A stretch of 64,000 bases of DNA from NCBI RefSeq assembly GCF_054482595.1, contig NZ_CM137008.1; one strand, given 5' to 3'. Numbering within the stretch: the first letter of the stretch is position 1; every line of letters begins with the position of its first letter. Below are positions 926 to 5,013 of this stretch, in pieces. Below the pieces are notes generated by a model, which saw only the letters and a list, made by a program, of their open reading frames with translations, was not told the DNA's origin and made no database searches. Both the position numbers and the translations under genes were made by a program.

Positions 926-1570
926 ATGGCTCGCACAAAACTGAAATTCCGGCTACATCGGGCAGTGATTGTCCTGTTCTGTCTTGCCTTGTTAGTGGCA
1001 CTGATGCAGGGGGCGTCATGGTTTAGTCAAAACCACCAGCGACAGCGTAATCCACAGCTGGAAGAACTGGCCCGCACCCTGGCGCGTCAGGTGACGCTGA
1101 ACGTTGCACCGCTGATGCGTACCGACTCACCGGATGAAAAACGCATTCAGGCGATCCTCGATCAGTTAACGGATGAAAGCCGTATCCTCGACGCGGGTGT
1201 GTATGACGAACAAGGCGATCTTATCGCCCGTTCTGGCGAAAGCGTCGAAGTGCGCGACCGGCTGGCGCTCGACGGCAAAAAAGCGGGCGGCTATTTTAAC
1301 CAGCAGATTGTCGAACCCATTGCCGGGAAAAACGGACCGCTCGGCTATCTGCGCCTGACGCTCGACACCCATACGCTCGCCACCGAAGCCCAACAGGTGG
1401 ATAACACCACTAACATTTTACGCCTGATGTTGCTGCTCTCACTGGCAATCGGCGTAGTGCTGACCCGCACGCTGCTACAGGGTAAACGTACCCGCTGGCA
1501 GCAATCGCCCTTCCTGTTAACCGCCAGCAAACCGGTGCCGGAAGAGGAAGAAAGCGAGAAAAAAGAGTGA
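926..1570 (+). CDS. ytjB: membrane protein Smp/YtjB
   Basis: 214-aa ORF with N-terminal TM segment, recognised as Smp; position between serB and lplA. Confidence 0.85.
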   Translation: MARTKLKFRLHRAVIVLFCLALLVALMQGASWFSQNHQRQRNPQLEELARTLARQVTLNVAPLMRTDSPDEKRIQAILDQLTDESRILDAGVYDEQGDLIARSGESVEVRDRLALDGKKAGGYFNQQIVEPIAGKNGPLGYLRLTLDTHTLATEAQQVDNTTNILRLMLLLSLAIGVVLTRTLLQGKRTRWQQSPFLLTASKPVPEEEESEKKE

Positions 1571-1597: not shown

Positions 1598-2614
1598 ATG
1601 TCCACATTACGCCTGCTCATCTCTGACTCTTACGACCCGTGGTTTAACCTGGCGGTGGAAGAGTGTATTTTTCGCCAAATGCCCGCCACGCAGCGCGTTC
1701 TGTTTCTCTGGCGCAATGCCGACACGGTAGTAATTGGTCGCGCGCAGAACCCGTGGAAAGAGTGTAATACCCGGCGGATGGAAGAAGATAACGTCCGCCT
1801 GGCGCGGCGCAGTAGCGGTGGCGGCGCGGTGTTCCACGATCTCGGCAATACCTGTTTTACCTTTATGGCTGGCAAGCCGGAGTACGATAAAACCATCTCC
1901 ACGTCGATTGTGCTCAATGCTCTGAACGCGCTCGGCGTCAGCGCCGAAGCGTCCGGACGTAACGATCTGGTGGTGAAAACCGCCGAAGGCGACCGCAAAG
2001 TCTCAGGATCGGCCTATCGCGAAACCAAAGATCGTGGCTTCCACCACGGCACCTTGCTGCTCAATGCCGACCTCAGCCGCCTGGCAAACTATCTCAATCC
2101 GGATAAAAAGAAACTGGCGGCGAAAGGCATTACCTCAGTGCGTTCCCGCGTGACCAACCTCACCGAGCTGTTGCCGGGGATCACCCATGAGCAGGTTTGC
2201 GAGGCCATAACCAAGGCCTTTTTCGCCCATTATGGCGAGCGTGTAGAAGCGGAAATCATCTCCCCAGACAAAACGCCAGACTTGCCAAACTTCGCCGAAA
2301 CCTTTGCCCGTCAGAGTAGCTGGGAATGGAACTTCGGTCAGGCTCCGGCATTCTCGCATCTGCTGGATGAACGCTTTACCTGGGGCGGCGTGGAACTGCA
2401 TTTCGACGTTGAAAAAGGCCATATCACCCGCGCCCAGGTGTTTACCGACAGCCTCAACCCCGCGCCGCTGGAAGCCCTCGCCGGACGACTCCAAGGCTGC
2501 CTGTACCGCGCAGATATGCTGCAACAGGAGTGCGAAGCGCTGTTGGTTGACTTCCCGGAACAGGAAAAAGAGCTACGGGAGTTATCGGCATGGATGGCTG
2601 GGGCGGTAAGGTAA
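1598..2614 (+). CDS. lplA: lipoate-protein ligase A
   Basis: 338-aa [28 protein letters not shown]..., recognised as LplA; SD-like GGAAA upstream. Confidence 0.95.
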
Positions 2615-2645
2615 CTCGCTGATTAAAATATCCAAGGAAGGAAAT

Positions 2646-2909
2646 ATGATCGATCTGGAAAACCAGGAACGGGAGATTATCAATTTAATGTTCAGCCAGC
2701 GTATTTCCTGGCTAGCCGCCGTGCGTATCAGGCATAAATTATCGCTTGCTGAAGTAAGTAAAATGTTAGGTATCTCGATTAATTCTCTAAAACAGATCGA
2801 AAAGACGGAACGGCTTAGCTCAAACATCAAAAGCAAAATGGCAGAAATTTATGGTTGTCCACCAGAGTTGCTGATATGCCCTTCCTGGATGACGGCTGAA
2901 CATAAATGA
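2646..2909 (+). CDS. small XRE-family helix-turn-helix protein (hypothetical)
   Basis: 87-aa ORF with strong SD (AAGGAAGGAA N5 ATG); HTH-like segment LSLAEVSKMLGISINSLKQIEK; AT-rich codon usage. Confidence 0.5.
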   Translation: MIDLENQEREIINLMFSQRISWLAAVRIRHKLSLAEVSKMLGISINSLKQIEKTERLSSNIKSKMAEIYGCPPELLICPSWMTAEHK

Positions 2910-2935
2910 ATAGATTCGTGAATAGATACTAAAAA

Positions 2936-2959
2936 GCCGGAGCAGTCCCCCACTCCGGC
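2936..2959 (-). terminator. rho-independent terminator downstream of deoD (hairpin also closes the convergent + strand ORF)
   Basis: GCCGGAG...CTCCGGC stem; on the minus strand it is followed by TTTTT. Confidence 0.7.
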
Positions 2960-2992
2960 TTAACACGACAATCGCCTTGCAGCGAAACACAA

Positions 2993-3712
2993 TTACTCTT
3001 TATCGCCCAGCAGAACGGATTCCAGTGCGATTTTGATCATGTCGTTGAAGGTGGTCTGACGCTCAGCGGCAGTGGTCTGCTCGTGAGTGCGGATGTGGTC
3101 AGACACGGTGCAGATGGTCAGGGCTTTCGCGCCAAATTCTGCAGCGACGCCGTAGATACCAGCCGCTTCCATTTCCACGCCGAGGATGCCGTATTTTTCC
3201 ATCACGTCGAACATTTCGCCGTCCGGAGAGTAGAACAGGTCAGCGGAGAACAGGTTACCCACGCGAGCATCAATGCCCAGTGCTTTAGCTGCATCTACTG
3301 CGTTACGCACCATGTCGAAGTCAGCGATAGCTGCGAAGTCATGGTCTTTAAAGCGGATACGGTTAACTTTGGAATCGGTGCAGGCACCCATACCAATCAC
3401 CACGTCACGCAGTTTTACGTGCGGCAGAACAGCGCCACAGGAACCAACGCGGATAATTTTCTTCACGCCGAAATCGGTGATCAGTTCTTTGGTGTAGATG
3501 GAGCAGGACGGGATACCCATACCGTGACCCATTACGGAAATTTTGCGGCCTTTGTAAGTACCAGTGAAGCCCAGCATACCGCGTACGTTGTTCACTTCAC
3601 GGGCATCTTCAAGGAAAGTTTCAGCAATATACTTCGCACGCAGCGGGTCGCCTGGCATCAAAACTACGTCAGCGAAATCGCCCATTTCTGCATTAATGTG
3701 TGGGGTAGCCAT
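2993..3712 (-). CDS. deoD: purine nucleoside phosphorylase DeoD
   Basis: [34 protein letters not shown]...; true start is the internal ATG at 3712 (239 aa) with AAGGA SD; track ORF is N-extended. Confidence 0.95.

Positions 3713-3768: not shown

Positions 3769-5013
<1,245 letters not shown>

Follow-up and report, generated by a model that had tools for sequence, protein, structure and literature searches.

What occupies the chromosomal slot of a HipA-family kinase gene in an E. coli strain that does not carry that gene, and were the present and the former occupant ever partners? The question is raised by the gap between lplA and deoD in the stretch of E. coli chromosome analysed here (64,000 nucleotides of contig NZ_CM137008.1, referred to below as the window). 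K-12 carries at this position yjjJ, also called hipH, whose product HipH (YjjJ) is a HipA-family kinase with an N-terminal helix-turn-helix (HTH) domain of its own (PMC8262856, PMC9948734, PMC11452175); the window carries a small open reading frame (ORF) there. A previous, sequence-only reading of the window suggested that this ORF could be an orphan antitoxin-like regulator left after loss of a kinase toxin. Here we ask what kind of protein it encodes, how it came to stand in the place of the kinase gene and whether it is likely to do anything today.

The ORF and its neighbours

Genes in this part of the window follow the order serB (minus strand), ytjB (926-1570, plus strand), lplA, the gap, deoD, deoB and deoA. 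The lipoate-protein ligase gene lplA (1598..2614, plus strand) forms the left edge of the segment that is swapped between strains, and the purine-nucleoside phosphorylase gene deoD (2993..3712, minus strand) is the right-hand neighbour, both being placed by the ORF list and by RefSeq annotation of the identical region. With lplA ending at 2614 and deoD at 2993, the gap measures 378 bp, in agreement with the original estimate of about 380 bp. The sole ORF noted in it opens with an ATG 31 nt past the end of lplA and encodes, at 2646..2909 on the plus strand, an 87-aa protein of the XRE/Cro-C1 HTH type (WP_000566150.1), as indicated by Pfam, RefSeq, an AlphaFold2 model, Foldseek, hhalign and PHROG. 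RefSeq names this entry "helix-turn-helix domain-containing protein", and PGAP has annotated the identical protein in O157:H7 and in strain XH990; the gene is, in other words, an already annotated but uncharacterised member of a very well known kind. The literature searched yielded nothing relevant on the locus, on its tags in O157, on the accession of the protein or on the repeat motif described below.

Two features reported for the ORF at the outset hold up well. A strong Shine-Dalgarno sequence, AAGGAAGGA, can be read at 2634..2642 (plus strand), a few bases 5' of the ATG, and it is kept, with small changes, in other strains. The composition is indeed AT-rich, with a GC content of 41.7% as against 57% for lplA and 52.5% for deoD, and shuffled sequence of like composition keeps a frame open over 86 codons in only some 0.3-0.4% of cases. 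Neither the 31-nt gap between lplA and the ORF nor the 3' end of lplA contains a terminator, and promoter scans of the same two regions gave no convincing sigma-70 promoter for the ORF. Downstream of the ORF lies the intrinsic terminator hairpin of deoD (2934..2961, minus strand). The sequence-only reading had this terminator serve both genes; the hairpin is certainly there, but both its detection and its T-run concern the deoD strand only, the plus strand continuing with TTAACACG, which leaves the sharing just plausible. Rfam searches of the O157-type and K-12-type loci at permissive E-values returned zero RNA families.

One slot, two alleles

That K-12-type strains carry the 443-aa yjjJ between lplA and deoD, on the strand opposite to the ORF, proved correct, and alignment with a K-12-type locus places the ORF in the very same slot. 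Homology between the two loci ends at the lplA stop codon and restarts at a CAT triplet (2901-2903). What lies between, according to the junction alignment, is 286 bp of AT-rich allele-specific DNA (2615..2900, plus strand) that consists of the 31-nt leader and ORF codons 1-85 and stands in for the 1329 bp that K-12-type strains have from codon 2 of yjjJ through its stop codon. The CAT triplet, identified by alignment of the upstream regions, is the relic yjjJ/hipH start codon (2901..2903, minus strand) and reads on the plus strand as His86 of the ORF, whose last two codons and TGA stop fall in the former start codon and 5' region of yjjJ. From this relic ATG a 27-codon antisense ORF runs across 2820..2903 (minus strand; register read from the sequence) as part of a listed minus-strand ORF of 56 aa. 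It is probably meaningless; it faces the 3' end of the HTH gene from the other strand, and in strains that keep the relic hipH promoter it could give rise to antisense transcription.

Although the two occupants share the slot between lplA and the conserved, repeat-bearing upstream region of yjjJ, they have little else in common. The ORF runs on the opposite strand, has one fifth of the length of HipH, lacks a kinase domain and is unrelated in sequence, the best BLASTP match between the two proteins having E=0.21 over 6 residues. A search for yjjJ remnants by tblastn and blastn against the whole window came back empty, and no kinase gene or remnant was found anywhere in it.

Both alleles are common. 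The ORF allele, scored at a coverage of 80% or more, is present in 4039 of 5426 complete E. coli genomes, among them O157:H7, O111:H8, O104:H4 and E. coli B, and yjjJ in 1348 (1346 of these nearly full length), among them K-12 and ST131, with about 40 genomes having neither allele or being unclear. These two totals were obtained separately, and they fit mutual exclusion of the ORF allele and yjjJ; no locus that we looked at had both. A side observation concerns the left-hand neighbour, lplA, whose sequence varies unusually widely, and in a mosaic pattern, from one E. coli strain to another (taken by thirds of the gene, identity is 95.6-99%). Its 3' third in the window is 98.5% identical to a K-12-type strain and 96.2% to O157:H7, whereas the window ORF is identical to that of O157:H7. 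Since the end of lplA is thus nearer to the K-12 type although the adjoining ORF is that of O157:H7, the mosaic points to recombination breakpoints beside the dimorphic slot.

Which occupant is older

To order the two alleles in time we turned to outgroups, whose gene context was taken from YjjJ homologues. The identity of these falls roughly with taxonomy (Citrobacter 62%, Kosakonia 61%, Salmonella 58%, Erwinia 49%). In Salmonella enterica, in Citrobacter freundii and in the species represented by contig L028 (YjjJ 69% identical), the order is deoD-yjjJ-lplA, with yjjJ abutting lplA and no HTH gene beside it; in Erwinia, deoD-yjjJ is followed directly by a ytjB homologue and there is no lplA. 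The L028 contig also shows a deoD-yjjJ spacer enlarged by a run of REP/BIME-like repeats and a 163-aa ORF without a Pfam match (3850-4830). Because deoD-yjjJ(-lplA) synteny is kept in these outgroups, we infer that the kinase gene hipH/yjjJ was the ancestral occupant and the small ORF its replacement. This replacement would not be recent, since the ORF is also found in E. marmotae, Escherichia sp. E1130, Escherichia sp. E1V33 and Shigella.

An early scan of genome contigs with the family alignment, for which the peptide patterns were too narrow, recovered two Escherichia loci only. An exhaustive HMMER search of 1.84 billion representative proteins yielded one more-distant copy, P0079, which is likewise 87 aa long, is 44% identical and lies between lplA and deoD on the short contig L006. 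The lplA of this contig shows 78-80% nucleotide identity to Escherichia, Salmonella and Citrobacter alike, and this equal distance from all three places L006 in another genus. A homologue search seeded with P0079 found only itself, a singleton among 5.8 billion proteins. The ORF and P0079 differ by zero indels; with dS saturated at about 2.3, their dN/dS comes to about 0.22, as against 0.03 for lplA. An indel-free frame of 87 codons across genera, a dN/dS of this size and the 0.3-0.4% chance of such an open frame together argue for a real protein. These comparisons make a good case for the ORF having been kept as a gene that codes for protein, if under much weaker constraint than its neighbour lplA, and the junction at the yjjJ ATG appears to be common to Escherichia and L006. 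As a separate observation, the ORF of this strain differs from those of two cryptic-clade Escherichia (L011, L012) by a dS of 0.06-0.08, which is 3-4 times below the 0.23-0.29 of lplA, the counts being small; the allele may have spread recently, or the nucleotide sequence itself may be constrained.

Relic upstream repeats and a 77-bp deletion

The yjjJ upstream region, which adjoins both alleles, carries a characteristic set of repeats. On the sense strand of yjjJ, the 9-mer ATCTATTCA occurs in three tandem copies that immediately precede the ATG at a 12-bp period (positions -36/-24/-12 or -35/-23/-11), and a fourth copy lies at -100/-101. This layout is found upstream of yjjJ in five genera, namely in the K-12-type locus (L003), Salmonella (L025), Citrobacter (L026), L028 and Erwinia (L036); the first proximal copy is degenerate in some of them, and the remaining deoD-yjjJ intergenic sequence is not conserved. 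Most strains with the ORF allele, O157:H7 for example, keep all four repeats together with the yjjJ ATG.

In the window two copies survive, seen on the plus strand as TGAATAGAT at 2907..2927 (2907-2915 and 2919-2927), as relics of the repeat set of the yjjJ promoter and 5' region, and the first of them provides the ORF with its TGA stop. Relative to O157:H7 and most strains, the window strain has a 77-bp deletion joined at about 2918/2919 (ambiguous within TGAATAGATACT), which lies between two direct repeat copies and removes the relic hipH promoter region; judging from this position, the loss evidently came about by recombination between repeats. Strain XH990 is identical to the window across the deletion, and the other full-length rows among the matches listed span about 545-558 bp for a query of 481 bp and so appear to be without it.

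On contig L006 the repeats have largely decayed and the ORF is kept. Conservation in genera without the ORF and decay in L006, which has it, suggest that the repeats belong to hipH and not to the ORF. Promoter scans gave no convincing sigma-70 promoter for yjjJ or for its relic upstream region, and no description of the ATCTATTCA repeats turned up in the literature searched. The hipH promoter is reported to be under c-di-GMP-dependent control (PMC11452175), and the repeats are a candidate operator for the N-terminal HTH of HipH or, equally, a candidate element of that c-di-GMP-dependent control.

Protein family and predicted fold

The XRE-type HTH signature proposed originally is borne out by Pfam, where HTH_3 (PF01381) matches residues 23-76 with E=8.3e-7 and 29.4 bits against a gathering score of 23, in an alignment that takes in the whole model (profile positions 1-55 of 55). 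The helix-turn-helix proper comprises residues 32-53, LSLAEVSKMLGISINSLKQIEK (2739..2804, plus strand), as placed by the Pfam alignment and by DSSP on the model (helices 34-41 and 45-54). The AlphaFold2 model, built from a small alignment, is all-helical (helices 4-18, 22-29, 34-41, 45-54, 59-69, 73-76 and 80-85), with a mean pLDDT of 89 and a pTM of 0.79. Its best Foldseek matches in the PDB, CylR2, C.BclI, P22 c2, SinR, CapH-N and ClgR, are Cro/C1-type HTH domains, so that the model and its top matches alike speak for an HTH fold, the absence of which would have told against the original proposal.

Structural likeness is best to CylR2, to the controller C proteins of restriction-modification systems and to the N-domains of SinR and CapH. 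Measured against such small stand-alone Cro/C1 regulators, the model reaches TM-scores of 0.54-0.63 normalised to the query and of about 0.7 normalised to the target for the compact HTH matches, which superimpose with an rmsd of about 1.5-2 A over 53-58 residues. At 16-30% identity this is a generic likeness of fold only, and the ORF product differs from these regulators by an additional helix at the N-terminus (residues 4-18) and by a short tail at the C-terminus. Family match and model thus identify the ORF product as a Cro/C1 (XRE)-type HTH protein.

Relatives in toxin-antitoxin modules

The ORF family is essentially confined to the lplA-deoD locus. Matches to E. coli records labelled as plasmids were considered as a sign of mobility and set aside, as they are replicons of 0.4-4.9 Mb or chromosome-sized records and have probably been mis-typed. 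Rejected as well was P0033 (L007 and L008; 72% identity) as a variant of the protein, as its differences (R to W/C, A to V, S to F/L, P to L) are those of a C-to-T-converted sequence, probably a bisulfite-like assembly artefact.

The nearest relatives outside the locus are 36-43% identical and all longer (95-133 aa). To the long relatives the ORF aligns along their C-terminal part only, which comprises a helix before the HTH, the HTH itself and a helix ending in a conserved YGC motif. In a comparison of the ORF family with the proteins of 124-133 aa, hhalign placed residues 9-77 on positions 61-130 of 132 (99.3%, E=3e-20). The best PHROG is phrog_7241 (E=3.4e-10), a profile of 122 positions on which ORF residues 10-77 occupy 54-121, whereas a relative from a Leclercia plasmid spans the same profile end to end. 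The concern that the ORF might be the conserved 5' end of a longer gene can be laid to rest on these grounds, as it corresponds, on the contrary, to the 3' (C-terminal) part of longer antitoxin genes elsewhere.

Six neighbourhoods of such relatives (118-133 aa) were examined: two metagenomic contigs, Leclercia plasmid pZ96-1_2, Serratia plasmid P1, Pasteurella phage Pmp14 and Enterobacteria phage PPyecE_EH1910. Each of the six has the HTH gene immediately 3' of a gene for a RelE/ParE-type toxin of 86-93 aa; Pfam ParE_toxin scored above threshold for four of these toxins, and the others are annotated or matched as RelE/ParE-type. The ORF is therefore homologous, over residues 9-77, to the regulator of toxin-first RelE/ParE-HTH modules (a PHROG 7241 regulator with a PHROG 1213 RelE-like toxin, in HigB/HigA-like order), although, unlike those plasmid- and phage-borne modules, it is chromosomal and fixed at one core-genome site with no mobile element. 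An incidental case is that of a two-domain relative, P0081 (L009, 3794-6079), which adjoins a DUF2357/PDDEXK_7 gene taken as restriction-type and is preceded by a 35-aa ORF only, in place of a complete ParE toxin gene; perhaps this is a further module in partial decay.

In antitoxins of the HigA2 type, the N-terminal part binds and neutralises the toxin. The ORF lacks precisely the N-terminal region (about 40-60 residues) of full-length family members, which is presumed to bind the toxin. Nor is there a cognate toxin gene beside it, with only 31 nt to lplA upstream and the deoD terminator downstream, and neither a full-length version of the antitoxin nor a toxin was found at the lplA-deoD locus in any genome. 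Without a toxin-binding part and without a toxin, the product cannot be a working antitoxin. In evolutionary terms, as judged by these homologies, it is the DNA-binding C-terminal domain of an antitoxin of toxin-first RelE/ParE modules. It would have originated by truncation of a full antitoxin, the nearest full-length relatives being 36-43% identical.

Disruption in present-day strains

Codon 50 of the ORF (2793..2795, plus strand) is CAG in the window, where the frame is intact, and TAG in at least 1686 complete E. coli genomes. This count is a lower bound given by an exact 57-mer with TAG found in 1686 of the 5426 genomes, so that at least 1686 of the 4039 genomes with the ORF allele (about 40-42%) carry the nonsense mutation, here called Q50*. 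The carriers include strains of the O104:H4 HUSEC2011 type, six of the ten contexts returned for an identical DeoD protein have TAG at this codon, and PGAP marks the gene with Q50* as a pseudogene with "internal stop". The stop falls within the helix at residues 45-54, presumably the recognition helix. Elsewhere the gene is disrupted by a 1-bp deletion with frameshift (L018), by internal deletions (L004) or by insertions (L005). As at least 1686 genomes do with the Q50* allele, the gene is dispensable; it is also lineage-restricted, and the window holds an intact copy. Pairs of Escherichia copies give dN/dS values of 0.16 to 0.78, always below 1 but based on very few substitutions, and these values, together with the frequent pseudogenisation, are compatible with a gene that no longer does anything.

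Discussion

The account that we consider probable is that the ORF encodes a stand-alone HTH protein, the DNA-binding domain of an antitoxin without its toxin, which replaced hipH, may act as a small repressor and can be dispensed with. An AT-rich segment of 286 bp would have replaced the hipH coding sequence from the lplA stop to the yjjJ start, leaving the relic upstream repeats alongside. Given the 31-nt gap, the lack of a terminator in it and the lack of a convincing promoter of its own, the ORF is most likely transcribed by read-through as the last gene of the lplA transcript, which would probably end at the deoD hairpin, and would be translated from its strong Shine-Dalgarno sequence. If the product acts at all, it is most likely at most a small, probably dimeric, DNA-binding repressor, for which the operators of related mobile RelE/ParE modules are our best guess as targets. 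The original proposal of an orphan antitoxin-like regulator thus survives in part: the ORF does encode a genuine small XRE HTH protein, its homology marks it as antitoxin-like, a toxin partner is missing and it stands where a kinase gene was replaced. The presumed link to that kinase is what has to be given up, in view of the lack of YjjJ similarity or remnants, the opposite strand, the allele-specific DNA and the pairing of the relatives with RelE/ParE toxins.

The main rival is that the ORF is a decaying relic, a piece of some degraded toxin-antitoxin cassette, without function in the E. coli of today (the window copy included) and subject to neutral decay. The Q50* allele in at least 1686 of 4039 carriers, the frameshift, deletions and insertions seen elsewhere (L018, L004 and L005), the absence of both a partner toxin and the N-terminal region of the relatives, and the near-restriction of the family to a single locus are all what such debris would look like. 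However, debris would hardly be expected to keep an 87-codon frame free of indels in another genus at saturated dS with a dN/dS of about 0.22, to retain its Shine-Dalgarno sequence, or to show a pairwise dN/dS below 1 in every Escherichia comparison, and we therefore regard this explanation as unlikely, though by no means negligible.

A more far-reaching idea, to which we assign a low probability, is that hipH and the 87-aa HTH gene are long-lived alternative alleles of one slot across enterobacterial genera, with the job of the HTH protein trading off against that of HipH. Were this true, the HTH protein could repress incoming RelE/ParE modules of phages and plasmids, in an anti-addiction role, or it could instead act at the ATCTATTCA repeats of the hipH promoter. 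Lower still do we rate the proposal that the ORF product regulates its neighbours, either by binding the TGAATAGAT repeats and the relic hipH promoter or by controlling lplA or the deo genes, and so substitutes for the HTH of HipH. The end of the ORF does lie inside the first repeat, and most strains with the ORF allele do keep four repeats and the yjjJ ATG; yet these are direct repeats with a 12-bp period that are conserved upstream of yjjJ in genera without the ORF, they have decayed in L006 while the ORF was kept, the window strain has lost 77 bp of the repeat region, and the ORF has no sequence similarity to the HipH N-terminus.

The reading from which the present study started, that of a HipB-like antitoxin or regulator orphaned by the loss of its HipA-family kinase partner yjjJ, is largely refuted and very improbable indeed. 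Its appeal is easy to see, as the ORF occupies exactly the K-12 position of yjjJ, a locus that historically held a HipA-family kinase gene, and as HipB is likewise a small XRE HTH protein. Unlike HipB, however, the ORF product has no adjacent kinase and no specific sequence relationship to HipB, the HipB models NF007271 and TIGR03070 being absent from its NCBIfam matches up to E=10. Moreover, yjjJ is monocistronic, in agreement with PMC8262856, and abuts lplA in Salmonella, Citrobacter and the L028 species, so that a partner gene would not fit in between; in Erwinia, yjjJ is not flanked by lplA; the ORF lies on the opposite strand in non-homologous DNA; and its relatives pair with RelE/ParE toxins. 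Finally, that the ORF is mis-called, the real feature being on the other strand or the ORF being the 5' part of a longer gene, is refuted: minus-strand ORFs of 84 and 56 codons do overlap it and some database entries are 89-113 aa long, but it is the plus-strand frame that Pfam, PHROG and hhalign match and in which codons are conserved, whole-query copies of at least 86% identity are 84-89 aa long (mostly 87 aa), the longer entries looked at are variants (P0029, for one, has insertions, L005), and the entries of 92-113 aa match about half to three quarters of the query.

If the preferred account of a stand-alone antitoxin domain is right, the ORF offers a clean example of a chromosomal orphan antitoxin domain, in a replacement whose edges fall neatly at the stop codon of lplA and the start codon of yjjJ. 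With a natural knock-out allele, Q50*, in about 40% of its carriers, its function, if any, should be easy to test. The practical point, however, concerns HipH (YjjJ) rather than the small ORF. HipH has been studied in K-12 and in UPEC as a toxin of persistence and biofilm (PMC9948734, PMC11452175), and the conserved repeat set upstream of its gene provides a concrete candidate operator for hipH regulation. Since only about one in four complete E. coli genomes carries hipH, conclusions about HipH cannot be extended to E. coli as a whole: most other strains, O157:H7 and E. coli B among them, appear to have exchanged the hipH coding sequence for a small HTH gene.
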